Below, one piece after another: positions 2,634-57,698 of a stretch of DNA of 64,000 nt; position 1 is the stretch's first letter; every line of letters starts with the position of its first letter. The position numbers and the translations under genes were made by a program. The DNA comes from Candidatus Kaiserbacteria bacterium (GTDB lineage Bacteria; Patescibacteriota; Minisyncoccia; Phycocordibacterales; Phycocordibacteraceae), in contig JAPLWI010000008.1 in NCBI GenBank assembly GCA_026396675.1, forward strand, positions 42,883-106,882. The letters run 5' to 3'. The notes under the pieces were generated by a model. It was not told where the DNA came from. It was given only the letters and a program-made list of their open reading frames with translations, and made no database searches.

Positions 2634-4384
2634 ACCCCATTAGAAATCTGATTTCTAATGGGGTGAATAAAGAATTGCGGGAACGACTTACGCGTATTCA
2701 GAACATTCCAGTTCTTGAACGTTTCAACGAACGCATTCGCGCTTTTTCTCCGAGCGATCGTATTATGTTTTATATTCTCGCGACCCTAGTCGGCATCGCC
2801 TCGCTTACAGGCCTTTATGCTCTTGAACAATCTCTCCTCAAACAAGTGCCCGCATACGGCGGAACGCTCGTTGAGGGCGAAGTAGGGAGTCCGCGATTTA
2901 TAAATCCACTTCTCGCTATCAGCGACGCCGACCGTGACCTTTCGGCACTCGCCTATGCCGGACTTATGGGCCTCTCTGGTTCTGGGAACCTAGTCCCAGT
3001 ACTCGCGAGCGACTATACTGTTTCAGCTGATGGAAAAGTGTATTCGTTTACCCTGCGTCCGAACGCTAAATTTTCAGACGGAGTGCCAGTTACAGCGCAG
3101 GATGTTGTCTTCACAATACAAAAAGCGCAGGATTCTGCACTAAAGAGTCCTGAATATGCGAACTGGTCGGGAATTATTGTTGAAGCTGTTGATTCGCATG
3201 TCGTGCGCTTCACTCTCCAAAAAGCGTATGCCCCTTTCCTAGGACTCACAACTTTAGGGATCCTACCTGCACACTTATGGCAGAACATATCAAACGAAGA
3301 ATTTGCATTCTCTACGCTCGAGACAAACCCAGTTGGAGCAGGGCCCTTCCGAGTAACGAGCGTTTCGCGTAATGCATCAGGACTCATACAGAGTGTATCG
3401 CTTACACAGAACTCTTTTTATGCGCTTGGACGACCGTATCTTGACGGCATTCGTTTTGACTTCTATTCACGAACAGAAGATCTCGTCGGTGCTCTTGCTG
3501 GCGGCGGTATAGAGAGCGCGTATGACATCCATTCAAATGGAACGACAGTAACCGCTCCGTATGCACGTGTCTTCGGCGTGTTCTGGAATCCAAGCGAAAA
3601 ACAAGTGTACGCTCGCGCGGAGGTTCGTAAGGCGCTCTCGCTCGCGCTCGACCGAAAAACAATTGCCGATACGGTGCTTGGCGGTTATGCGACAGCAATT
3701 ATGGGTCCTGTGCCACCAGGAAGAAAGGTGGAGCAGGTTCCAATTCCGCAATCGAGTAATCCGACGGAAACGGCTGCGGGAATACTTAAGGCAGCCGGAT
3801 GGACATATGACAGTTCTGCGCGCATTTGGAAAAATATAGGTGCAAAACAAACAATCGATAGTATTACAATACGAACTTCAAATGTTCCTGAATTAAAAAA
3901 TGTGGCGAGTGCTGTGAAAGCGGATTGGGAAAAACTCGGTATTCCAGTTACAATCGAGCTCTACGAGCCGGGCGATCTCTCACAAAATGTAATCCGTCCG
4001 CGTAAGTATGAAGCGCTTCTCTACGGTATGGTCATCGGCCGCGATCAAGACCTGTATGCTTTCTGGGATTCACAAGAGCGCAACGACCCTGGTTTGAATA
4101 TTGCGCTTTATGCGAACAAGACAATTGATAATCTCCTCGAAGATGCACGTAGTTCTACGAGCGAACAAGAACGAACTGCAGATCTTCAGAAAATCGAGAA
4201 TCTTGTCGCCGCAGATTACCCCGCCGCATTCTTGTATGCACCGAATTTCGTCTACGCAGTGCCGAATGATCTACAGGGTGTTGAATTGCCACAAATTATA
4301 ACGCCGTCCGATCGTTTCGCTTCAGTCGCATCGTGGTATCGCGTGACCGATAAAGTGTGGCCATTTTTAGTAAATAAAAAATAA
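2630..4384 (+). CDS. ABC transporter substrate-binding protein, family 5 (oligopeptide/dipeptide/nickel-type), 584 aa
   Basis: An N-terminal TM/signal anchor is followed by a fold typical of OppA/DppA family-5 solute-binding proteins (…YTVSADGKVYSFTLRPNAKFSDGVPVTAQDVVFTIQKAQD…). Confidence 0.65.
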   Translation: MNPIRNLISNGVNKELRERLTRIQNIPVLERFNERIRAFSPSDRIMFYILATLVGIASLTGLYALEQSLLKQVPAYGGTLVEGEVGSPRFINPLLAISDADRDLSALAYAGLMGLSGSGNLVPVLASDYTVSADGKVYSFTLRPNAKFSDGVPVTAQDVVFTIQKAQDSALKSPEYANWSGIIVEAVDSHVVRFTLQKAYAPFLGLTTLGILPAHLWQNISNEEFAFSTLETNPVGAGPFRVTSVSRNASGLIQSVSLTQNSFYALGRPYLDGIRFDFYSRTEDLVGALAGGGIESAYDIHSNGTTVTAPYARVFGVFWNPSEKQVYARAEVRKALSLALDRKTIADTVLGGYATAIMGPVPPGRKVEQVPIPQSSNPTETAAGILKAAGWTYDSSARIWKNIGAKQTIDSITIRTSNVPELKNVASAVKADWEKLGIPVTIELYEPGDLSQNVIRPRKYEALLYGMVIGRDQDLYAFWDSQERNDPGLNIALYANKTIDNLLEDARSSTSEQERTADLQKIENLVAADYPAAFLYAPNFVYAVPNDLQGVELPQIITPSDRFASVASWYRVTDKVWPFLVNKK

Positions 4385-4395
4385 TTAACTTCTTT

Positions 4396-6360
4396 ATGAA
4401 TTCAGCACCAGCCCCGGCACCGAGTCCGGCAAATCCGAGTCCTTCGCGCGATGAACATTCTTTCTCTCGTCCTTCTTCTCCGCGGCGTTTTGACAAAAGA
4501 GGAAGTCGTCCACTTGGACAACGCCCGCCCGTAAGTTCGCCTCGCCGAGGATTTAGCGAGGCGAGTAGGAAGGGGCCACGCCCAGGAGGCGCAACGCGTC
4601 GAATTCAACGAATTCTTCGTCGCCCATCGGCGAACCCGACACATCGGATTAAGAGCGCCGATTACTTCCCTTCTCAGCCGAGCGCGACAACGGTTCGCAT
4701 TATTCCGCTCGGCGGAGTAGAAGAAGTGGGGCGCAACATGATTGCCGTTGAGGTCGGTGCGACCGGCGACATTCTCGTTTTCGATGCAGGTTTTCAATTC
4801 GTTTCCGAAGATGTGTCTCCGGGCGTTGATTATATTCTCCCAAACACAAAGTATCTTGAGAAGAATGCCGAGCGAGTGAAGGGGGTCATCATTACGCACG
4901 GACACCTCGATCACATCGGCGGTATTCCTTTCACATTGCCGCGTTTCGGGAACCCTCCTGTATACACTCAGAATCTCACTTCAATAATGATTCAGAAACG
5001 GCAAGAGGAATATCCAGATATCCCGAAGCCAGAATTGATAATCGTTGAAATCGGCCAAACTGTAACTATCGGTAAGACGCGCGTAAAATTTTTCCCAGTT
5101 ACGCATTCAATTCCCGACTCCATGGGCGTGTCAATTGAAACGCCGCAAGGCAACGTGGTCATCACCGGTGACTTGAAACTTGAACACGATGACGGCATTC
5201 CTTCAGAACGCGAGGTAAAGACCTGGGGCGATATCGGCAAAGACAATAATATTTTCTTTATCGCCGATTCGACGAACGCCGAAAAAGACGGGTTCTCTAT
5301 TCCCGAGAAACGCGTCATTCAAACGTTGGAAGATATTGTGAAGACGGTTTCCGGACGCCTTATTATCGGCACTTTCGCTTCGCAATTTGAGCGCATGATT
5401 CATATCATAGAGATAGCGGAAAAATTGCATAAAAAAGTCGTTACTGAAGGTCGCTCCATCAAAACCAACCTTGAAATCGCAGAAAAAGTTGGGCTTTTGA
5501 AGATTAATAAAGATACTCTCATTCCCGCACAAGATATCGGGGACTATCCGCCAGATAAAATCGTCATTCTTTCAACCGGCGCACAGGGAGAAGAATTCGC
5601 CGCCTTGATGCGTATCGCAACCAAACAGCATAAATACATCATGCTTTCTGAACGCGACACGATTGTACTTTCATCATCGGTTATTCCGGGAAATGAGCTC
5701 AATGTGCAGAAATTGAAGGATAATCTCTACCGTCATGGCGTTACGCTTATCAATTATCGTTCGTCGGATGTTCACTCGACTGGCCATGGCAACACAGGCG
5801 AACTCGTGTGGATTAATAAACAGGTTCATCCGAAATTCTTTATGCCCTCTTACGGCTACCATTCAATGCTTCGTTGCCACGCGAAGGCCGTCGAGCAATC
5901 GGGATTCCCTCGAGAAAACATCGTCATTCCTGACAATGGCTTCGTCATCGACATTGAAGATGGTGAACGGATGAATGTACACAAGCAGAAAGTACCCTCC
6001 ACACCGATGGTTGTTGACGGATTCAATATCGGTGATATACAGGAAGTCGTAATTCGTGATCGCCAGTCACTCGCGAAGGATGGTATGTTCGTCATCATCG
6101 CGAGCGTCAATCTTAAGACCGGCAAATTGCGTAAGTCGCCTGATATTATCAGCCGCGGCTTTATTTATCTGCGCGAATCGCAGAATCTTCTAAACGAAGC
6201 GCGCATTCTCATCAAAAAAACAGTTGAGGATTCAACACGCAATATGAATCCGATTGATTTGGATTATGTAAAAAATAATCTGACTGATGTAATGGCGGGC
6301 TACCTCTTCAATCGCACCAACAAAGCCCCGATGGTGATTCCTGTCCTGATTGGGATGTAA
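4396..6360 (+). CDS. rnj: ribonuclease J (metallo-beta-lactamase / beta-CASP) with a ~100-aa Arg/Pro/Ser-rich N-terminal extension
   Basis: VRIIPLGGVEEVGRNMIAVE...GVIITHGHLDHIGGIPF (HxHxDH motif), followed by beta-CASP and C-terminal RNase J domains. Confidence 0.85.
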   Translation: MNSAPAPAPSPANPSPSRDEHSFSRPSSPRRFDKRGSRPLGQRPPVSSPRRGFSEASRKGPRPGGATRRIQRILRRPSANPTHRIKSADYFPSQPSATTVRIIPLGGVEEVGRNMIAVEVGATGDILVFDAGFQFVSEDVSPGVDYILPNTKYLEKNAERVKGVIITHGHLDHIGGIPFTLPRFGNPPVYTQNLTSIMIQKRQEEYPDIPKPELIIVEIGQTVTIGKTRVKFFPVTHSIPDSMGVSIETPQGNVVITGDLKLEHDDGIPSEREVKTWGDIGKDNNIFFIADSTNAEKDGFSIPEKRVIQTLEDIVKTVSGRLIIGTFASQFERMIHIIEIAEKLHKKVVTEGRSIKTNLEIAEKVGLLKINKDTLIPAQDIGDYPPDKIVILSTGAQGEEFAALMRIATKQHKYIMLSERDTIVLSSSVIPGNELNVQKLKDNLYRHGVTLINYRSSDVHSTGHGNTGELVWINKQVHPKFFMPSYGYHSMLRCHAKAVEQSGFPRENIVIPDNGFVIDIEDGERMNVHKQKVPSTPMVVDGFNIGDIQEVVIRDRQSLAKDGMFVIIASVNLKTGKLRKSPDIISRGFIYLRESQNLLNEARILIKKTVEDSTRNMNPIDLDYVKNNLTDVMAGYLFNRTNKAPMVIPVLIGM

Positions 6361-9481: not shown

Positions 9482-9574
9482 AGAATACGCGTCTTGTTGG
9501 CTTGGTGCAATCTGCTTAATTCAGGTGCGCCAGTTTAATAAATGGGCTCCTTTTGTTTTTGCGAATTATTTTTT

Positions 9575-10231
9575 CTACAGTATATCCTTATATTTCTCCT
9601 TTCCAGCATCTACCCTCTTTTTTTGCTCATATTCTTCTTTCCTCTTTTCCTCTTCTTCTCCCTTTTTTCTTTCTTGCATCTCTTTATATTTTGGACTTTC
9701 TTCCCATTCTTTCTTTTTCTTTTCTTCTTCTTCCTCTCTTCTCTTCTCCTCTTCTTCTGCACGAATTTCTTTATCAGCTTCCTCTTCAAAAGAATTAAAA
9801 ATACCGCCGTCCTGAAGATTTGCTACATCTCGATATTTATTAAACAACTCAATAGCAAGTTCGTCATCGATTTGTTCCCCGTCAATTTCTCCATGTGCTT
9901 TATATTTTGACCAGTCGTGTTTTGCCTGTTGATCAAGTTCGATATAAATTTGATGTTCGCCTATCTTACCTTCCAACACTCCATTATTGCCAGTTTGAAA
10001 TTCTTCATCATAAAGTCTTTGTAAATCTTTTTTTGTTATATCTTTTTTGATATTACTTGCAATTCTCAAATCAAATTTACCTTCCTTTAAATCTCTAAAT
10101 AATTCTCTCCCGATATTTTCTATCGCCTTTTCTCTCATACTAGACATTTTTTCTTCTTTTTTGTTCATCATTCCCTTGGCTTCATTTAACTCTTTCGTAG
10201 ATGGGCGATATTGTTCTGGTGATTTTGTCAT
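9575..10231 (-). CDS. hypothetical protein with an extreme Glu/Lys-rich C-terminal tail (218 aa)
   Basis: The C-terminal tail reads …EEEADKEIRAEEEEKRREEEEEKKKKEWEESPKYKEMQERKKGEEEEKRKEEYEQKKR…. The coding strand is a ~200-nt purine tract, so the plus strand shows a pyrimidine tract. Confidence 0.45.
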   Translation of the reverse strand: MTKSPEQYRPSTKELNEAKGMMNKKEEKMSSMREKAIENIGRELFRDLKEGKFDLRIASNIKKDITKKDLQRLYDEEFQTGNNGVLEGKIGEHQIYIELDQQAKHDWSKYKAHGEIDGEQIDDELAIELFNKYRDVANLQDGGIFNSFEEEADKEIRAEEEEKRREEEEEKKKKEWEESPKYKEMQERKKGEEEEKRKEEYEQKKRVDAGKEKYKDIL

Positions 10232-10279: not shown

Positions 10280-11164
10280 TTAAAAACCACTGTCTTCAAT
10301 ATCGCGGAGTTGCTGATAGGGACGAATATTCTTGCACAAATCGCTTTGGGTTGTTGTGGCATCTCGTTTGCTCGTCGAGGCAACTACTGCGAGTGGCGGT
10401 GGAAGCCCATTTTTAGGACCTCCACGGAAATTCCAAGGAAACACAAAGCAAGCATGAAAGGATGAACTTGTTGCTGAGGCAGAAGTGCCTGTCTGCACAG
10501 GCAATCCTACAACACGCACGATACCGCCGCGAGCAATAGTAGTTAGATCTGGATTGCGAAGATCACTTCCGTCGATTTCCCACATATGCCCAGAAAAATC
10601 ACGGAGAGTGAAGGAAGCAAGGTCTGATGCAACATTTATAACTTCCCCTCCCAAAAGCCCCTTCTCCGGCGCGAGCCACCATGATTGTTGTTGAACGAGA
10701 ACAGGACGATAAAAAGGAGGGTGATCGCCGATTGCCTCATCAATTCTGCCGCCAAAACCAATCGCATACAGACCTGTACCGAGAGTGAGTGAAGTAAGTA
10801 CTGCCCCGAGAGCGATGATAGGAAGTGAATACCGATATCCGTGATTGGTTCGACGAATATTTATATATCCAATACAAATGAAAAGGGCGAGTGTTCCTAT
10901 CCAAACGAATGGTGCGGCGGCTAGAAAGAATGAGAAAAAGGTGGTGTGCGTCGCGGCTGAGAGACGCCAATCGACATTCGCGATTTCAAAGAATGTCGCT
11001 GAACAAGCTAGCGCGCCAAATGCCACAGCAAGCGCTCCTAATAGCCAGAAAAAATAATTTTTGATTACGAATTCCCAGCGCGGGCGTGGTACGAGATGTT
11101 CATTCTTGATGTAGTCGAACACTCGCTCTGCGATATGTGCTTTGTTGTGATTATTTGTGTTCAT
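10280..11164 (-). CDS. membrane protein, probable cognate anti-sigma factor (294 aa)
   Basis: Its start overlaps the stop of the ECF sigma gene by 4 nt. It has a short cytoplasmic N-terminus, three TM helices and a ~160-aa extracytoplasmic domain. No conserved anti-sigma motif was recognised. Confidence 0.4.
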   Translation of the reverse strand: MNTNNHNKAHIAERVFDYIKNEHLVPRPRWEFVIKNYFFWLLGALAVAFGALACSATFFEIANVDWRLSAATHTTFFSFFLAAAPFVWIGTLALFICIGYINIRRTNHGYRYSLPIIALGAVLTSLTLGTGLYAIGFGGRIDEAIGDHPPFYRPVLVQQQSWWLAPEKGLLGGEVINVASDLASFTLRDFSGHMWEIDGSDLRNPDLTTIARGGIVRVVGLPVQTGTSASATSSSFHACFVFPWNFRGGPKNGLPPPLAVVASTSKRDATTTQSDLCKNIRPYQQLRDIEDSGF

Positions 11165-11781
11165 GATGAAAAAGTTTTTGGAAGTGCATCCCGTAATGCA
11201 TGCTTGGCACGGTAGAGGAGTGTCGAGACCGTTCCCACCGGTACTTGTAAAATATCAGACATCTCCGCATAAGAGCGATTCTCGAAAAATCTTAATGTGA
11301 GAGCATCGCGATAGGATTGCGAGAGTGTTTCAAGTGCTTTCGTTAATTCCTTTTGCGAGAGACGCGTCTCTGCGAGGAGAGAAGTGTCCGCTGTCTCATC
11401 CTGCAATTCTGTAATAAGTGCTTCTCCTTCTTCGTTTAGGACAACCTGCGGTCGAGCGTGTTTCGCACGGAAGAAACTCATTGCTTCGTTATGCACTATG
11501 CGATACATCCACGAAGAGAATGCTAGCGTCGGATCAAAACTATTGAGATTTTTATATGCTTTAATGAAAGCATTCTGCAAAATATCTTCCCGATCCTCTA
11601 GAAGCCCGACACCTAGCCGCTCTAAGTACCGCATTAGCTTCGCTTCGTACCGTTTAATAAGAAACACGAATGCTTCCTTATCGAGGAGCGTGCGGCGAAC
11701 AATTTCCTCATCTGATGCATCATCACCCTGTCGAGGGTGCATTTCGAGTGTCATGACTCCATATCTTACTACGCTTTCCAC
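11161..11781 (-). CDS. ECF-type RNA polymerase sigma-70 factor (206 aa)
   Basis: Region 2 (ILQNAFIKAYKNLNSFDPTLAFSSWMYRIVHNEAMSFFR) and region 4 (SYAEMSDILQVPVGTVSTLLYRAKHALRD) signatures are both present. Confidence 0.75.
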   Translation of the reverse strand: MESVVRYGVMTLEMHPRQGDDASDEEIVRRTLLDKEAFVFLIKRYEAKLMRYLERLGVGLLEDREDILQNAFIKAYKNLNSFDPTLAFSSWMYRIVHNEAMSFFRAKHARPQVVLNEEGEALITELQDETADTSLLAETRLSQKELTKALETLSQSYRDALTLRFFENRSYAEMSDILQVPVGTVSTLLYRAKHALRDALPKTFSS

Positions 11782-50991: not shown

Positions 50992-51258
50992 CTATTTCTT
51001 CAAACCAAGCTTTTTGATAACGGCGTTGTAGCGACGTTTATCATTTGATTCAAGGTAGCGAAGATGTGAACGGCGATCGGCAACCATTTGGAGAAGCCCG
51101 CGACGAGAATGGATATCTTTCGGGTTTTTCTTCAAATGCTTGGCGAGTTCGTCAATTTGTTTGGAAAGAAGCGCGACCTGAACATCCGGCGAGCCGGTGT
51201 CAGCATCGTGCCGAGCAATATTCTTAATAACTACGGCTTTTTTCTTCGTGGTAAGCAT
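50992..51258 (-). CDS. rpsO: 30S ribosomal protein S15
   Basis: …IARHDADTGSPDVQVALLSKQIDELAKHLKKNPKDIHSRRGLLQMVADRRSHLRYL… matches S15. Confidence 0.9.
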   Translation of the reverse strand: MLTTKKKAVVIKNIARHDADTGSPDVQVALLSKQIDELAKHLKKNPKDIHSRRGLLQMVADRRSHLRYLESNDKRRYNAVIKKLGLKK

Positions 51259-51360: not shown

Positions 51361-52260
51361 ATGGAAGCAGAACCTGCAAAACGACAATTTTTGGAATACA
51401 TAGAGATTGAACGCGGGCGCGCGGTGAAAACAATTGAAAATTATGACCAGTATCTTACGCGCTACTTCATGCAGATGAACATAAAGAGTGTCGGTGATAT
51501 CAGTGAGCAGAATATCCGCGAATTCCGTCTCTGGTTAAATCGCCAGCCCGGCACTGGCAACGGTTCGATGAAACGCCGCACGCAGAATTACTATATGATC
51601 GCGCTCCGCGCGTTCTTAAAGTTTCTGCGTAAACGAGGAATTGAATGTATCTCGCCAGAACGCATAGAACTAGCCAAACTCCCTGAGCGGGAGCTCGATC
51701 TTATCTCACCCGCTGAACTTCAGCGGCTTCTCGCGTCGGCAGACGGCGCCGAAGAACGCGGTCTCCGCGATAAAGCGATACTTGAACTTTTTTTCTCCAC
51801 AGGTCTTCGTGTTTCGGAACTCTGTGCGCTTGATTGTGACCTTGATCTCACCCAAGATTCTTTTTCTGTGCGCGGCAAGGGCGAAAAAGTGCGAGTCGTC
51901 TTCCTCTCCCCCGCTGCTAAGAGTGCTGTCGCCGCATATCTCAAAGCGCGAAAGGATATGGCGGAGGCGCTTTTTGTAAATATTAGAAGCGATAAAGCGA
52001 TTCCGACTCGTCTAACACCACGCTCGGTAGAGCGCATCATAAAAAAATATGCAATGAAAGCCGGCATCACAAAAAAAATGACCCCGCACGTCCTCCGCCA
52101 CGTCTTCGCCACCGATTTACTCAACAACGGCGCCGACATTCGTTCCGTCCAACAACTCCTCGGCCACGCTTCAATCAACACAACGCAGATTTACACGCAC
52201 ATAACGGACTCTCATTTGCGAGAAATCCACAAAAAATATCACAATAAAAACAGTAGTTGA
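51361..52260 (+). CDS. xerC: tyrosine recombinase XerC/XerD family
   Basis: The N-terminal SAM-like domain is followed by a catalytic domain with …HVLRHVFATDLLNNGADIRSVQQLLGHASINTTQIYTHITDSHL… (R..H..R..Y catalytic residues). Confidence 0.85.
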   Translation: MEAEPAKRQFLEYIEIERGRAVKTIENYDQYLTRYFMQMNIKSVGDISEQNIREFRLWLNRQPGTGNGSMKRRTQNYYMIALRAFLKFLRKRGIECISPERIELAKLPERELDLISPAELQRLLASADGAEERGLRDKAILELFFSTGLRVSELCALDCDLDLTQDSFSVRGKGEKVRVVFLSPAAKSAVAAYLKARKDMAEALFVNIRSDKAIPTRLTPRSVERIIKKYAMKAGITKKMTPHVLRHVFATDLLNNGADIRSVQQLLGHASINTTQIYTHITDSHLREIHKKYHNKNSS

Positions 52261-52262
52261 TT

Positions 52263-53291
52263 CTATTTTCCGACCCTTTCAACCATAAACTTTACCGCAT
52301 CATCCATATTTATCGGTTGAATTTCTATGTGCGGATATTTTTCTTTAAACACTCTAAATATTTCATCAGAAAAAGCTTGCCCGATCATGGGCACATTATC
52401 AAAATCCAAAATTATGGAGTCAAATTTATCCAAACCATCAAGAATTCTTCGAGCTTGAGAACGGGATATATGTACACCATCTCCAGAAGTATAGAGTTTT
52501 ACCTTAATTTCAGTTTTGTTGAATGCAAAATCTGTGCCCACGCTGAATTCCCTGAAGAGGGCACTCAAGTGCCTGTTAGATTTTACATCGATTGTAAATA
52601 CGACTCTTGTTCCTCTTTTTAATGCAGGACGTTTTTTGTAGAACAGTTCGCGAGTTTTGTTATTAATCACTAGGATATATCCATAACTCTCAAGAGTGAA
52701 AACATCCCCTGCTTTGGATGTAAAGAAGATTCCTTGGCCGGAATGTGATTTTGGCATTGTTGTCGTCTTACCTTTCAGGAGATCCTGCATGGCTTCAATC
52801 TCTGTCCTCAACTTTTTTTCGCGCATAACATTTCTAAACACACCGATTCCAAAATCGTTAACAATAAAATTTAACTTGCGATTTTGAACCGACATCTCCA
52901 CTTCAATGTATTTAGACTTAGAGTGTTCAATAGCGTTATTCACCATTTCAGAGAATGAGTAGTTCAAGATGCTTTTGATGTTTTCTGGAAGCAGTCCAAT
53001 GGGAGGATATTGCGCCAGAATATCTGCATAGATTTCATGTTCCTGCAATTTATAATTCTTGATTCGCTTGCTTATTTTTGTAGGAAAAGATCCATTTTCA
53101 TTTACCGATTCGGACAAAAGATAGTAAGCCGCACTTGTCGATCCAACTTTAATAAGCTTGCCTTTCGCAACAAGATCGTTGATCAGCACTACTGCGTATT
53201 GCCTAGAAACCCTAAATAAAGCAACAACATCGCTACTTCTGAGCTTCTTTTTGATTCTTGCTATTTTTACTATCTCCAGTTCTCTATCCAT
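52263..53291 (-). CDS. wHTH + GHKL (HATPase_c) ATPase + C-terminal STAS-like (DUF4325-type) domain protein, 342 aa
   Basis: The N-terminal winged helix is …VVALFRVSRQYAVVLINDLVAKGKLIKVG…. The N-box is EMVNNAIEHS, the G1 box NDFGIGV and the G2 box SGQGIF. The C-terminal …SIILDFDNVPMIGQAFSDEIFRVF… is DUF4325/STAS-like. Confidence 0.5.
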   Translation of the reverse strand: MDRELEIVKIARIKKKLRSSDVVALFRVSRQYAVVLINDLVAKGKLIKVGSTSAAYYLLSESVNENGSFPTKISKRIKNYKLQEHEIYADILAQYPPIGLLPENIKSILNYSFSEMVNNAIEHSKSKYIEVEMSVQNRKLNFIVNDFGIGVFRNVMREKKLRTEIEAMQDLLKGKTTTMPKSHSGQGIFFTSKAGDVFTLESYGYILVINNKTRELFYKKRPALKRGTRVVFTIDVKSNRHLSALFREFSVGTDFAFNKTEIKVKLYTSGDGVHISRSQARRILDGLDKFDSIILDFDNVPMIGQAFSDEIFRVFKEKYPHIEIQPINMDDAVKFMVERVGK

Positions 53292-53347
53292 ACCACTATG
53301 ATATTCCAGTGTTTATTGGTTGTCAACCACTTTTAAATTCATTGTAA

Positions 53348-53434
53348 ACTGATTGTAAACAACTCTACACTCACATCACCGACGCGCACCTGCGCGAGGT
53401 GCATAAGAAATATCACTCAAACGGGAGTCAGTAA
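53348..53434 (+). pseudogene. relic of a tyrosine-recombinase 3' end (last ~24 codons, including the catalytic Tyr) from a second, diverged Xer-like gene
   Basis: Frame-2 translation reads TDCKQLYTHITDAHLREVHKKYHSNGSQ*, against the XerC C-terminus …TQIYTHITDSHLREIHKKYHNKNSS*. It is preceded by an in-frame stop at 53345 and the tandem repeat ATTGTAAAC-TG-ATTGTAAAC (53341-53360). No upstream remainder of the gene is present. Confidence 0.55.
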
Positions 53435-54369
53435 TGTTTTAAAGCCAATTTAATTTTCGGATTGTTATACCAGTCTTTATCTTCAAAATACGCATCTGGC
53501 CCATCCTTTATAATTTTTTCCGTTGCTTTCCTCCCATCCTCAATTCCACTTGAAAAAAGACTGTAGGCCATAAAGCGATTTTTTCTAACAATTGCCTCTA
53601 CCACATCTTTATCTTCCGCAAGATTTGAACGCTCTGCCAGATTTCTTAAGTAGCTATATCCACCAGAATCGTGATCATATTCGTCATTAATTGGCATAGA
53701 ATTTATTATTTCAAGCACTATGTTTTTAGAATAAACCTTGCCTCTATCATATGCCAACAGAGGAGATAAGGCACCAGGATTGCCCATTCCTTTCACATAG
53801 CGCAAAATCATTGCGTCATTATTCAGAAAATCAATTGCCTTATCATCACGCATAGTTTGAAACATAAGGTTATAATCCCCTGCCTTTCCTCCTAATTTTT
53901 TAAACCGAGCAATATAATCATCCATCTTCTCTTCCGGAGACTTTTCGCCTTGTTCCTTGTTTTCTGCTACTACTGGTTCTTCCTTATCAACCGTCATTGA
54001 CTCAGTTTTTTCCATTGCTGGAGGTTGCACATTCCCACCCTTAAGCTTTTCCAAAATTTCTGCTGCTTCTTTTTGGGACTTTTCTGCGTCCAATTTCGCC
54101 TGCTCGGCAAGTGCCGCTTCCCTGCCTGCTTTTTCTTCTGCGGCTTTTGCTTCGTCAATCCCTTTATTGATTTCCAATGCTTCTTCTTGAGCATTGCCCA
54201 TCATTTCAACTTTTGCCGTTTCCATACTTTTTGCCTCTTGTGCTAGTTCTGCAACCTTTCCATAATCCCCTGCCGCAACAGCATCGGTAAGTTCCTGTTT
54301 CTTTTGTGCAATACCTGCTTCATTTTCATCAAAGACCTCTCGCGAGCTTGTTGGATTTTCGTTGGACAT
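53428..54369 (-). CDS. hypothetical protein: N-terminal Ala/Glu/Lys-rich coiled coil plus a C-terminal globular domain (314 aa from MSNENPTSS)
   Basis: No recognisable family. The ORF track starts 63 nt upstream, at 54432. Confidence 0.4.
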   Translation of the reverse strand: MSNENPTSSREVFDENEAGIAQKKQELTDAVAAGDYGKVAELAQEAKSMETAKVEMMGNAQEEALEINKGIDEAKAAEEKAGREAALAEQAKLDAEKSQKEAAEILEKLKGGNVQPPAMEKTESMTVDKEEPVVAENKEQGEKSPEEKMDDYIARFKKLGGKAGDYNLMFQTMRDDKAIDFLNNDAMILRYVKGMGNPGALSPLLAYDRGKVYSKNIVLEIINSMPINDEYDHDSGGYSYLRNLAERSNLAEDKDVVEAIVRKNRFMAYSLFSSGIEDGRKATEKIIKDGPDAYFEDKDWYNNPKIKLALKHY

Positions 54370-54450
54370 AAGTTTGTTATTTAATCCCTTGAGAATACCA
54401 ATGGGGGGGCAAAACGCAATGTGGTTCTGCACTGCCGATCAAATTGGGTT

Positions 54451-54735
54451 TTATTCGCCGAACAGTTCTGGGTGCGTACCAATTTCAGAGATAGTAACAA
54501 TCCCCGCTTCATCATTGCGTTTGTATATCAATAACAAGTTAAATCCCAAGTGACACTCTCTAAAACTCGCGAATTCCCCATGAAGTTGGTGGTCTTTAAA
54601 CCTCTCTGGAAGCGGATTCCCTTGCTCAAGACAATTAAGGACTGAATTGAAAACAGAAGAATTGAATGTGCCAGAATACCTTAATTTCTTTAAACGCCTT
54701 CGCGCCGAGATAGAAAGCGATACAGAATAGATCAT
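54451..54735 (-). CDS. yafQ: type II toxin, RelE/YafQ family mRNA interferase
   Basis: …KDHQLHGEFASFRECHLGFNLLLIYKRNDEAGIVTISEIGTHPELF follows the YafQ pattern (H.L.G…rEcHi…LLiY…vtl.ri.gtHselF). It overlaps the upstream dinJ-like gene by 4 nt. Confidence 0.75.
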   Translation of the reverse strand: MIYSVSLSISARRRLKKLRYSGTFNSSVFNSVLNCLEQGNPLPERFKDHQLHGEFASFRECHLGFNLLLIYKRNDEAGIVTISEIGTHPELFGE

Positions 54736-55016
54736 TGGAAGAATTCTTTCATTATCTCCTTCGCGGTATATCGTTTACCATGCTTCTCCGCGTATTCCGT
54801 TTCGCGAATAACGCGTGCTTCAAACTCGGGCGTGAAGCCATTTATTGTGCGTGGCGTAAACGGCATCGCCTTGTCTTGGACAACGCGAGAAAGGTACATA
54901 TTGATACCGGTCGAGAGATCGAATCCCATCTGCTTGAATACGCGCTGTGCGGCGAGTTTCGTCGCTTTGTCGGTCCGCACGTTCACCACTGCTTTTGCGA
55001 TTGTTTTGGTAGCCAT
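54732..55016 (-). CDS. dinJ: type II antitoxin, RelB/DinJ family, with a C-terminal extension (start taken at MATKTIAK)
   Basis: MATKTIAKAVVNVRTDKATKLAAQRVFKQMGFDLSTGINMYLSRVVQDKAMPF matches DinJ-family antitoxins. An extra ~40 aa follows. Confidence 0.7.
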   Translation of the reverse strand: MATKTIAKAVVNVRTDKATKLAAQRVFKQMGFDLSTGINMYLSRVVQDKAMPFTPRTINGFTPEFEARVIRETEYAEKHGKRYTAKEIMKEFFQ

Positions 55017-55024
55017 ACGGATAG

Positions 55025-55090
55025 TATACACATTGTATATACAAATGCAATCATACCTGTGCATAAGAAATAAAATGATTAAGGTATACA
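55025..55090. promoter_or_regulatory. operator-like TATACA / TGTATA half-site cluster in the dinJ-yafQ / xth divergent promoter region
   Basis: TATACA-CAT-TGTATA lies at 55025-55039, with a further TATACA at 55085-55090. The arrangement is typical of an autoregulated TA operator. Confidence 0.45.
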
Positions 55091-55099
55091 ATAGTTTCT

Positions 55100-55867
55100 A
55101 TGAAAATCGTCTCGTGGAATGTGAATGGATTGCGCTCGCTCGCAAAAAATGGCTATTGGGAAGCATTTTTGAAAGGCACGAAGCCGGACATATTCTGCCT
55201 TCAAGAGACGAAAGCGAGTCCTGAACAAGTGCCGGATGAGTTGCGCGAAGTTGCCGGATTTTCTTCTTTCTTCTCATCTTCGCAAACAAAAAAGGGTTAT
55301 AGCGGCGTCGCGCTTTATTCAAAAATCGAACCATTGTCCGTTATTTACGGTATGGGAATAAAAGAATTTGATCATGAAGGTCGGATTATCGGCGCAGAAT
55401 ACGAAGATTTTTGGCTCTTGAACGTCTACTTCCCTAATGGCGGAATGGGTCCTCATCGTCTCGACTACAAAATGCGTTTTTACGATGCCTTTCTTTCATT
55501 TGCAGAAAAATTACGGAAGAAAAAGCCAGTTATTTTTTGCGGCGATATCAATACCGCTCATGAAGAAATCGACCTTGCGAGACCAAAAGAAAATGAGGGG
55601 AATACTGGCTTTTTGCCTCAAGAACGTGCCTGGATCGATGAGGTTGTGAACGCCGGATATGTTGATTCATTTCGACATTCCAACCCACATCGGACAGGGG
55701 CATACACATGGTGGGATATGAAGTTTCGCGCTCGCGATAGAAATGCCGGATGGCGTTTTGATTACTTTTTTGTTGCAAATGAATTTTTAAAACGAATTAA
55801 AAAAGCGGAAATTCATAGCGAGATTTACGGCTCAGACCACTGCCCTATTTCCATCACTGTGTCATAA
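55100..55867 (+). CDS. xth: exodeoxyribonuclease III (AP endonuclease, EEP family)
   Basis: MKIVSWNVNGLRS…IFCLQETK…FCGDINTAHEEIDL…WWDMKFRARDRNAGWRFDYFFV…SDHCPISI matches ExoIII. Confidence 0.9.
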   Translation: MKIVSWNVNGLRSLAKNGYWEAFLKGTKPDIFCLQETKASPEQVPDELREVAGFSSFFSSSQTKKGYSGVALYSKIEPLSVIYGMGIKEFDHEGRIIGAEYEDFWLLNVYFPNGGMGPHRLDYKMRFYDAFLSFAEKLRKKKPVIFCGDINTAHEEIDLARPKENEGNTGFLPQERAWIDEVVNAGYVDSFRHSNPHRTGAYTWWDMKFRARDRNAGWRFDYFFVANEFLKRIKKAEIHSEIYGSDHCPISITVS

Positions 55868-56234: not shown

Positions 56235-57698
56235 CTAGCTCACTCCATGCTTTTTCATTATATGCTTTATTTCCTCATTTTCTTCAGCTTCCTTACGCTC
56301 TTCCCCTGCCTTTCCGAGCCTTTGTAACTCATTTTCAGGCATTTCAAGTAGTTCGTCAGTTCGCTTATCGAGATATTCCTCTGTATTTAAATCGGCGTTA
56401 TCAAGAACTTCTTCGAGAAGGGCATTTAATAAATAGCCGATCTTCGGCCCCGGTTTCTCGTGGAACTTTTCCATTATGCGATTTCCATCCGTTTTGAGCC
56501 TAGAAACAGAAATTGGATCATGGAGGGCTTGTTCTACCAATGCCTTATACTTACGAAACCGAAATGGTTGCTCTTTTGGTCGACCCATCCCGATACGGTC
56601 GCACATTCTAAGATTAAGCAGATCCCAGATATTCTCCTCGCCGACGTTGGTTATCATACGACGCACTGCTGATAGAGTAATTTGATCGGGATCCGAAAAA
56701 AACATGTGCCAGCGGACCAATTTTACGACCTTATCAATTGTTTCGCGTGGGAAGCGTAGATTTTCAAGGATTTTCTTTGTTTCGCGTGAACCAACAACTT
56801 CATGGCCATGGAAGCTCCAATCATCTTTTTCATCTGAATGACGGCGCGTTTCTGTCTTTGATATATCATGGAATAGGGCAGCGAGACGAATTTCCAAATT
56901 AAAATTTTTATCCGCCGCATGCTGTAAGGAACGAACAAGATGTTCAAAAACATCGTAACTATGTGCTTGATTCTGTCCTATACCAAAAGAATCGGCTAGT
57001 TTCGGAATTATGAATTCAAGGATACCAAGCCGTTGCGCCAGAATAAGAGCATTCATCGGCTGACTTGATTCTAATATTCTTACAAATTCGTCTCGAATCC
57101 TTTCACATGAAACATGGCCTAAATGCTTGCTATTTTCGCTTATCGCCATTGCTGTATCACCATCTATTCCAAAATTTAACTCGGCAACAAAGCGAACGGC
57201 GCGTAAGAGACGCAAAGCATCCTCTTCAAAACGTTCACTCGGATTCCCGACTGCGCGAACTATTTTGTCCTTTATGTCCTTTTGACCTTCATAGGGATCT
57301 ATAATTTGTCCTTTTGATTCATCGAGGGCGATGGCGTTGATCGTGAAGTCCCTCCGAGCGAGATCTTCAAGAAGGGAAGTGCCGAATTCAACTTTATCCG
57401 GCCTACGTTTATCGGAATATTTGGATTCAATACGGTAAGGAGTGACTTCAACAATAGCCAGTCGTTCGTCTTCAGAATTCGTCTTTACTCCAACCGTCCC
57501 GTAGTCATTTTCATAAAAGGAGTCGGGGAATACTGCCTGGATTTGTTCTGGCGTTGCGTTGGTAGTAATATCCCAGTCCTTTGGTTCCTTTCCGACAAGG
57601 AGATCGCGAACGCACCCGCCAACAAGATATGCCTCGAATCCGGCATTTCGCAGTTTCGCGGAGACGGTCGAAATTTCTTTTGGGATGCGATACGACAT
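56235..57698 (-). CDS. cca: CCA-adding enzyme / tRNA nucleotidyltransferase with HD domain
   Basis: GGCVRDLLVGKEPKDWDITT… is the polymerase-beta nucleotidyltransferase head. The C-terminal HD domain reads …RLAALFHDISK…. Confidence 0.85.
   Translation of the reverse strand: MSYRIPKEISTVSAKLRNAGFEAYLVGGCVRDLLVGKEPKDWDITTNATPEQIQAVFPDSFYENDYGTVGVKTNSEDERLAIVEVTPYRIESKYSDKRRPDKVEFGTSLLEDLARRDFTINAIALDESKGQIIDPYEGQKDIKDKIVRAVGNPSERFEEDALRLLRAVRFVAELNFGIDGDTAMAISENSKHLGHVSCERIRDEFVRILESSQPMNALILAQRLGILEFIIPKLADSFGIGQNQAHSYDVFEHLVRSLQHAADKNFNLEIRLAALFHDISKTETRRHSDEKDDWSFHGHEVVGSRETKKILENLRFPRETIDKVVKLVRWHMFFSDPDQITLSAVRRMITNVGEENIWDLLNLRMCDRIGMGRPKEQPFRFRKYKALVEQALHDPISVSRLKTDGNRIMEKFHEKPGPKIGYLLNALLEEVLDNADLNTEEYLDKRTDELLEMPENELQRLGKAGEERKEAEENEEIKHIMKKHGVS

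Follow-up and report, generated by a model that had tools for sequence, protein, structure and literature searches.

Probable displacement of a xerC 3' end by a single-gene insertion in a Candidatus Kaiserbacteria genome

Here, we analyze a stretch of 64,000 nucleotides from a Candidatus Kaiserbacteria bacterium (contig JAPLWI010000008.1, positions 42,883 to 106,882; hereafter the window), in which an intact Xer-type tyrosine recombinase gene, xerC, is followed by a single convergent regulator-like gene and then by a short second copy of the xerC 3' end, the relic. We conclude that the relic is probably the former 3' end of the resident xerC, moved 1.1 kb downstream by C-terminal displacement. 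It is most likely a scar without a function of its own, although it is unusually well preserved and may therefore act as a homology arm or as a spare tail. The geometry of a duplicated target 3' end around one inserted gene, with xerC kept intact, had been recognized in a preliminary description made from the sequence alone, and our analysis confirms it.

The relic and the intact recombinase gene

The working 3' end of xerC (52186-52260, plus strand; QIYTHITDSHLREIHKKYHNKNSS followed by the stop codon) is contiguous with the gene body, and codon alignment with it, together with tblastn and a junction shared with relatives, defines the relic at 53360-53434 on the same strand (QLYTHITDAHLREVHKKYHSNGSQ and stop codon). 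Positions 53300-53437 of the plus strand translate as ...NSL, a stop, TDCKQLYTHITDAHLREVHKKYHSNGSQ and a further stop; the TAA at 53345-53347 is the in-frame stop that had been placed upstream of the fragment. The recombinase C-terminus seen earlier at 53348-53434 is real, but the homology begins at the Gln codon at 53360 and not at 53348; the codons for TDCK (the 12 bases before 53360) are part of the operator of the neighboring gene.

Over the relic core (53360-53416), compared with the corresponding part of the working tail (52186-52242), 16 of 19 residues are identical and the rest are conservative replacements (I/L, S/A, I/V). At the DNA level, 41 of 57 bases agree and 12 of the 16 differences fall at third codon positions; through the stop codon, the identity is 48/75 bases (64%), in line with the previous figure of about 65%. 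When the XerC tail was used as a tblastn query against the surrounding 20 kb, the relic was recovered at E = 4e-11, a similarity to recombinases that is better than chance, and it was the only significant second XerC match across the window. The same arrangement was found in independent assemblies from other samples (L001-L006; related loci carry L numbers throughout), with the relic seen in L004, and a relic with the same junction is also present in two further species-level lineages, L167 and L088, so that an assembly artefact can be discounted.

Against the working tails of other lineages, the relic core matched L091 at 51/57 nt, and L088, L007 and L090 at 49/57 each. Overall, its identity to the orthologs' working tails ranged from 43 to 51 of 57 nt, the same range as that of the working tails among themselves (41-53/57). 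The tails of the 120 closest XerC orthologs have AHLREV or SHLREI cores and vary in their last five residues, and the relic's own tail type, AHLREVHKKYHS.GSQ, is found among these orthologs. These comparisons identify the relic as a Candidatus Kaiserbacteria xerC tail of orthologous origin. Because it is nearer to other lineages' working tails than to the working tail of its own genome, both tails must have diverged as working ends in different lineages. The earlier assignment to an older and separate paralog (xerD or an integrase, for instance) did not hold, as the relic lies inside the variation of orthologous xerC tails.

The intact gene (51361-52260, plus strand, 299 aa) was delineated from its open reading frame, and its product matched Pfam Phage_integrase (PF00589, E = 7e-41) and an N-terminal SAM-like domain (PF02899, E = 1e-13). 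It passed the cut-off of the XerA-type NCBIfam model NF040815 (245 bits, cut-off 220) and scored below the equivalog cut-offs of the XerC (240 vs 335) and XerD (247 vs 330) models. With a catalytic domain, a SAM-like domain and a curated cut-off passed, the intact gene qualifies as a Xer-type tyrosine recombinase; since only the XerA-type cut-off is passed, 'xerC' serves here as a convenience name. The XerA model, the sole curated model whose cut-off the recombinase passes, is described as archaeal-type. The protein is 100% identical to a Ca. Kaiserbacteria protein. Apart from xerC and the relic, no other recombinase-like sequence was found in the window, and the presence of xerC as its sole recombinase-like gene suggests a single-recombinase Xer system in this organism.

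The inserted gene and its regulatory module

The 1.1-kb interval between the two tails carries one gene, as first described, at 52263-53291 on the minus strand (342 aa). Its proposed wHTH-GHKL-STAS-like identity was supported by Pfam, an AlphaFold model and Foldseek. Pfam reported DUF4325 at E = 2e-14, with HATPase_c_2 just short of the cut-off, and the AlphaFold model (predicted local distance difference test score, pLDDT, 81) comprises an N-terminal winged helix, a SpoIIAB/RsbW-like GHKL domain and an RsbV/RsbS-like STAS domain. Foldseek matched it to SpoIIAB, RsbW, RsbV and RsbS, with target-normalised template modelling (TM) scores of 0.64-0.82 for SpoIIAB and the chains of the RsbV/RsbW complex (0.66-0.82 for the latter) and 0.53 for RsbS. 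By fold, the product is therefore predicted to be a partner-switching-like regulator.

The gene has its own predicted promoter, TTGACA-17 nt-TATCAT (53298-53326, minus strand), which matched 11 of 12 positions in a consensus scan and places the ATG 6 nt past the -10 hexamer TATCAT; across nine copies of the unit located at different loci, both the -35 element and the 17-nt spacing are conserved. A conserved 5' module (53311-53360), delimited by comparison with L088, L167 and other loci, contains two ATTGTAAAC repeats and is probably an operator. The tandem repeat ATTGTAAAC-TG-ATTGTAAAC was indeed present at 53341-53360 (copies 53341-53349 and 53352-53360), but the att-like direct repeats suspected around the insert were not: the ATTGTAAAC pair forms the operator/promoter end of the GHKL unit and travels with the gene to other loci. 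In an alignment of the nine copies, conservation extends from GTTTACAAT-N2-TTTACAAT over TTGACA-17 nt-TAnnnT and through the stop codon, and the flanks are unrelated.

The 5' module is identical to that of the window at 52/53 positions in L088 and 45/45 in L167, and it also precedes the GHKL homologs found at the clpP, xth, HIT/RecJ, sigma-factor and rpsO-xerC loci; all copies end at the second repeat, and the flanks differ beyond. Recent horizontal spread was considered as an explanation for the near-identical 53-bp module in L088 and rejected, because the GHKL gene is 13% diverged between the window and L167 while the module is conserved at other loci, which suggests that the module is constrained regulatory sequence. 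Two TTTACAAT repeats and the TTGACA-17-TAnnnT arrangement were also observed in L110, L168, L170 and L172-L175, with the ATG 6-10 nt after the -10 element. This short distance suggests a near-leaderless, probably autoregulated gene, for which the repeats would probably be the operator.

Homologs 77-91% identical to the cargo gene occupy seven or more different loci in close relatives. Those with 77-84% identity lie at the clpP 3' end (L168, L169, L171), in the xth-cca gap (L110, L170), divergent from xth (L172), near HIT/RecJ (L173), after a sigma-factor gene (L174), and between rpsO and xerC (L175:1-2056, JAHFMH010000095.1). The last case indicates that the usually constant rpsO-xerC junction can take cargo too. 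Judged by these copies, the cargo appears to be a discrete, self-contained unit bounded by the operator repeats and the stop codon, and the GHKL gene is an accessory gene. PADLOC returned no defence annotation for the GHKL gene, for p334 (the gene downstream of the relic) or for the cargo of L088, and a sequence search of the PDB was uninformative. DUF4325 is mentioned in three papers, but in the title or abstract of none of them. Distant GHKL-DUF4325 relatives occur on 51 viral contigs, and the operator repeat gave no match in viral contigs. Neither a clpP-tail relic beside the GHKL unit at the clpP locus nor a shared terminal repeat or attC-type site flanking the nine GHKL units was found. 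We also considered, and rejected, an integron-like cassette platform, given that there is no terminal repeat, the flanks are unrelated and the module is found only with GHKL units.

Synteny and recurrent tail relics in relatives

Most of the related loci, about 160 in species genomes and metagenomes together, keep the gene order p520-dksA-p417-NYN-rpsO-xerC-gap-xth-cca. The xerC-xth gap measures 5 to 5418 bp (median 438 bp across 74 species genomes with both genes) and its cargo differs between relatives, in agreement with the earlier proposal of a recombination hotspot. In the window, the order from left to right is rpsO (50992-51258, minus), xerC (plus), the 342-aa GHKL gene (minus), the relic (plus), p334 (53428-54432, minus), YafQ and RelB (54451-54735 and 54732-55091, both minus), xth (55100-55867, plus) and cca (56235-57698, minus). 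By synteny, the exonuclease III gene xth is the conserved right border of the variable gap.

In two relatives, L087 (XerC 92%) and L176 (XerC 91%), xth directly follows xerC. On the P0006 contig (XerC 89%), xerC is followed after 6 nt by a convergent 383-aa gene, YafQ, RelB and xth, which is the order that the window would have if the GHKL gene were absent and the relic were the working tail, and the state predicted before the insertion. The product of p334 (334 aa, low G+C), known from its open reading frame, has no function assignable from protein families and gave no match in Pfam, NCBIfam or PADLOC; a homolog is found at the same position in L088 (69% over 135 aa) and a weaker one in L091. 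The stop codon of the relic overlaps that of the convergent p334, and 2 nt separate the working xerC stop from that of the convergent GHKL gene. As the relic/p334 overlap parallels the abutment of xerC on a p334-like gene in a relative, an old junction appears to be preserved, with the displaced 3' end still beside its former neighbor; p334 can thus be taken as the original downstream neighbor of the relic xerC tail.

The L167 lineage (XerC 90%, GHKL 91%) shares both the arrangement and the junction, in which ...ATTGTAAACTGATTGTAAAC gives way to AACTCTAC..., and L088 (XerC 90%) has the same junction and the relic; common to the window, L167 and L088 is ATTGTAAAC abutting AAC. In L088, the closest metagenomic relative, a RelE-like toxin and a SocA/Panacea-domain antitoxin (L088:6891-7833) stand in place of the GHKL gene, and the stranded -35 element and operator half of the GHKL promoter are retained, 52/53 identical to the window. 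The dksA genes of L167 and L088 are 86% identical to that of the window, compared to 74% or less in other relatives. As the flanking genes make these three lineages mutually closest, one ancestral event suffices, and we propose that the insertion predates the split of at least three sampled lineages.

To examine recurrence, each locus was probed downstream with its own XerC tail. Relics of the xerC tail were found in L051, L109 (two), L150 (two), L091 (two), L082 and L009; overall, xerC relics occur in at least eight loci and represent at least six independent events, and relics of the xth tail occur in four loci. Two mid-xerC segments used as control probes gave nothing except one chance 15-mer. 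Relics are nested in L150, L109, L110, L115 and the window. Such recurrent and nested relics in related genomes are what repeated displacement would leave behind.

Several of these loci are informative in detail. In L051, an 84-aa GIY-YIG gene (Pfam E = 2.6e-15) directly follows xerC (L051:6947-7286, JBPOJJ010000002.1), and the relic behind it begins exactly at the catalytic tyrosine codon; the locus looks like a free-standing homing endonuclease insertion with 3'-end duplication. L109 contains a 27-nt relic and a 107-nt relic that is 98% identical to its own working tail. At L109:9283-9438 (Ga0082335_1000054), the first 13 codons of an xth allele (MKLVSWNVNGLRS) are fused in frame to the last 38 xerC codons, joined at a 6-8 nt microhomology, CG(C/T)TCC. 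The working tail lies 2.4 kb upstream of this chimera, the xth allele is foreign, and some of the cargo is shared with L122. One of the two L091 relics, 56 nt long and 98% identical to its own tail, reaches into the YafQ 3' end; the L082 relic measures 37 nt, and the tail duplicate of L009 lies about 20 nt past the xerC stop.

The xth tail shows a corresponding pattern. In L170, a GHKL unit has the working xth tail on one side and, on the other, a relic of that tail, IHPSIFGSDHCPVSIML (L170:2062-2112, E = 6e-8). Further xth-tail relics are present in L110 (three: 9553-9579, 10729-10779 and 11214-11240), L115 (two: 4233-4262 and 5542-5595) and L060 (one), and in both L170 and L110 an xth relic lies directly behind the GHKL-DUF4325 unit.

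A probable second relic lies beside xth in the window itself. The 14-mer GTGCATAAGAAATA at 55059-55072 (plus strand), 27 nt upstream of xth, matches relic 1 exactly and encodes VHKKY; two copies occur in the window, compared to 0.02 expected, and the position is homologous to that of the 56-nt L091 relic. This nearly erased sequence is probably what remains of an older xerC tail, displaced when the YafQ-RelB cassette came in, and a second, eroded relic next to xth indicates serial insertions. The YafQ toxin and RelB antitoxin genes were identified with Pfam (YafQ_toxin, E = 1.5e-20; RelB, E = 4.6e-10, with a likely true start near 55016). The same cassette is found in the xerC-xth gap of L008, L089, L091, L110, L116, L122, L123 and L125, and it is an older cargo cassette of that gap. 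Upstream of relB, it carries a conserved palindromic stretch, TAGTATACACATTGTATA.ACAA.

Base composition was also surveyed. The stretch between xerC and xth (52200-55090) has a low G+C of about 0.35-0.42, compared to about 0.47 for the whole window, which is consistent with acquired DNA. A replication terminus at xerC was considered and dropped, because the local GC-skew maximum there vanishes at the 2-kb scale; the window shows a weak sign change near 58 kb only. No dif-like palindrome was apparent by eye in the xerC tail, for which no formal dif search was run.

Mechanism, alternatives and known systems

In the mechanism that we favor, DNA from a related Kaiserbacteria lineage would have entered the cell, carrying the end of xerC followed by the compact unit of operator, promoter and wHTH-GHKL-STAS coding sequence. 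On the left, this DNA would have recombined homologously inside the highly conserved xerC; on the right, an illegitimate join would have formed at the Gln codon that precedes the catalytic tyrosine by two codons. The outcome would be an intact xerC with the incoming tail, and the old tail 1.1 kb downstream, still joined to the convergent p334. Repeated displacement events could then build nested arrays of tails and cargo. We infer this route, that is, DNA uptake with one-sided homologous and illegitimate recombination, as well as the direction of events and the structure of the donor.

Several observations weigh against displacement. At the junction in the window, microhomology amounts to at most 1-3 nt, counted with the donor flank not identified, and sliding identity against nine relatives revealed no breakpoint in xerC where the left crossover should lie. 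Natural competence of the organism is assumed. Base composition, tried as a test of which tail is native, was uninformative: the G+C z-scores of the two tail copies (-0.7 and +1.5) are both in the normal range, and working tails average 7 points lower in G+C than gene bodies. All relic starts fall within the last 38 xerC codons or the last 18 xth codons, a clustering that may reflect either instability of longer repeats or a preferred site. Lastly, the relic core behaves as if under protein-level purifying selection, unlike a dead scar.

This last point requires closer consideration. Between the window and L167, the relic core shows five differences, all synonymous third positions, and 0/38 changes at positions 1 and 2, whereas a neutral expectation would be about 10-12 changes at those positions (P about 1e-5 or less). 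For comparison, third-position divergence between the same two lineages is 0.32 for the GHKL gene and 0.35-0.47 for host genes, and the 18 nt after the core together with the adjacent non-coding DNA are scrambled and unalignable. The L088 relic core has 4 changes at positions 1/2, concentrated in the two junction-adjacent codons, versus 8 at third positions. No route for expression of the relic was found: there is no start codon, and the conserved operator contains an in-frame TAA. Neither L167 nor L088 has kept the open reading frame upstream of the relic, and an antisense reading frame does not fit the substitution pattern. Four chimeras of XerC body and relic tail, the products that excision would yield, were looked up as exact sequences and none occurred among 15 billion proteins. 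Possible causes of the conservation are periodic reuse as a working tail in a reversible cassette, overwriting by recombination with the tails of GHKL-free relatives, or another function.

The most serious alternative is that of an integrase-less mobile cassette that moves site-specifically in and out of the xerC tail near the tyrosine codon TACAC, with XerC or another recombinase as the possible catalyst and the old tail serving as attR and spare end. We regard this as unlikely, and the credit that we do extend to it derives mainly from the conservation of the relic core (5 synonymous and 0 other changes relative to L167). It would also account for the identical junction in three lineages, the clustering of relic starts near the gene end, nested relic arrays of the kind expected from tandem integrations, and the position of the hotspot next to the sole recombinase gene; in addition, a junction-adjacent Leu CTC codon is common to the window and L167 and absent from all 120 working tails examined. 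However, the longest identical run between the tail copies is 9 nt (AAATATCAC), relic start points differ among events (between -17 and +13 codons relative to the tyrosine), the junction in L109 joins the relic to xth at a microhomology, and the GHKL unit is found at clpP and other loci without xerC-like sequence or relic. Moreover, the three carriers form one clade, for which one ancestral event is enough, and no predicted excision product was found in the protein look-up. For these reasons, that is, the lack of an integrase in the insert or an identical core beyond 9 nt and the variable start points, we did not retain the site-specific integration suggested in the preliminary description. 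A stricter form of the proposal, in which the relic is under selection and the GHKL unit plus tail is a reversible, integrase-less mini-cassette that docks at a fixed xerC 3' position, and similarly at xth, possibly via that recombinase, seems to us quite improbable. If it were true, the xerC-xth region of reduced candidate phyla radiation (CPR) genomes would be an integron-like gene-capture platform with gene tails as 'att' sites.

Displacement is also to be preferred over cleavage by a homing-type endonuclease near the tyrosine codon, followed by repair that copies in the cargo and a cut-resistant tail. L051, with its GIY-YIG gene exactly between xerC and a relic starting at the tyrosine codon, fits such a process well, GIY-YIG genes also flank xerC in L079 and L057, and the breakpoints of the window and L051 are only two codons apart. 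Yet no nuclease gene is present in or next to the insert in the window, L167 or L088, GIY-YIG genes occur in only 3 of 86 loci examined, and the xth relics and other xerC relics break elsewhere, which leaves this explanation with little probability for the window.

Slightly less credible still is a local tandem duplication of the xerC tail with later insertion of the GHKL unit between the copies. In its favor is L009, in which the tail duplicate lies about 20 nt after xerC with no cargo between. In the window, however, the copies are 72% identical with almost exclusively synonymous differences, indicating that they diverged as working tails in different lineages, and the relic is nearer to other lineages' working tails than to the adjacent one.

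Finally, the idea that the relic is what is left of another recombinase gene, xerD or a mobile-element integrase, after deletion of its 5' part can practically be dismissed: only the similarity to a tyrosine recombinase C-terminus speaks for it, but none of about 150 related loci with downstream sequence contains a second recombinase here, in the closest relatives xerC is followed by xth or a p334-like gene (so that the scar of a deleted xerD-like partner, once entertained, finds no counterpart), the relic matches orthologous xerC tails at up to 51/57 bases, and the window holds no other recombinase-like sequence.

CPR bacteria have tiny genomes with few recognizable mobile elements, and little is known of how accessory genes reach them. 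The locus provides a readable record of gene gain, in which small units (the GHKL gene, toxin-antitoxin pairs, the GIY-YIG gene) arrived at two conserved gene ends and each insertion left the previous gene end as a marker. Duplicated gene tails thus offer a simple genome-wide signature with which to map insertion hotspots and to order events in uncultured lineages. Should the relic owe its preserved frame to reuse, this would indicate a form of gene mobilisation without a dedicated integrase that has not been described before.

Comparable 3'-end duplications are known from other systems. In work from 1994, Paquin and colleagues reportedly described a mobile endonuclease open reading frame in Allomyces atp6 that duplicates the 3' end of an organelle gene. 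As with such elements, insertion here is in the 3' region of a gene, with a foreign replacement C-terminus and the resident one downstream, and L051 corresponds to this exactly; unlike them, the insert in the window has no endonuclease gene.

A second parallel is prophage e14 or phage 21 in E. coli icd, where integration gives rise to icdC, a pseudo-3' end (Hill et al. 1989, as cited in PMC13626634). As far as that secondary account goes, the likeness is close: a surrogate 3' end borne by the insert keeps the target intact, the original end persists as a short pseudogene at the far side, the copies differ mainly by synonymous changes, and excision would give a chimeric working gene. In contrast to e14 as outlined there (15 kb, own integrase, defined att core), the insert here is 1.17 kb with one regulator-like gene; it contains no integrase (52261-53359 holds the GHKL gene alone), and the tail copies share no identical att core longer than 9 nt.

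The proposed route resembles homology-facilitated illegitimate recombination in natural transformation (de Vries & Wackernagel 2002; Prudhomme et al. 2002; as cited in PMC5361080). In the form in which the citing paper presents it, one end is anchored by homology and the other joins at a nearby microhomology, of which L109 provides an example with 6-8 nt. Experimental demonstration of that process is limited to a few culturable competent species, whereas here it is deduced from sequence scars.

C-terminal displacement itself is known in Rhs, contact-dependent inhibition (CDI) and type VI secretion system (T6SS) effector-immunity arrays (Jackson et al. 2009, PMC2935791; Kirchberger et al. 2017, PMC5361080). 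For Rhs tips and T6SS arrays, the proposed routes are homology-facilitated illegitimate recombination and a circular intermediate (PMC2935791, PMC5361080). As in those systems, the conserved 5' part of the gene would act as the homology anchor, incoming DNA would bring additional genes together with a new 3' end, the previous end would be kept downstream as an orphan along with its neighbor, and repeats of the process would build nested arrays. Unlike in those systems, the targets here are a housekeeping recombinase and exonuclease III instead of a polymorphic toxin, both tails have the same function, such that the tail swap would be a by-product and the payload a separate gene, and the host has a reduced CPR genome.

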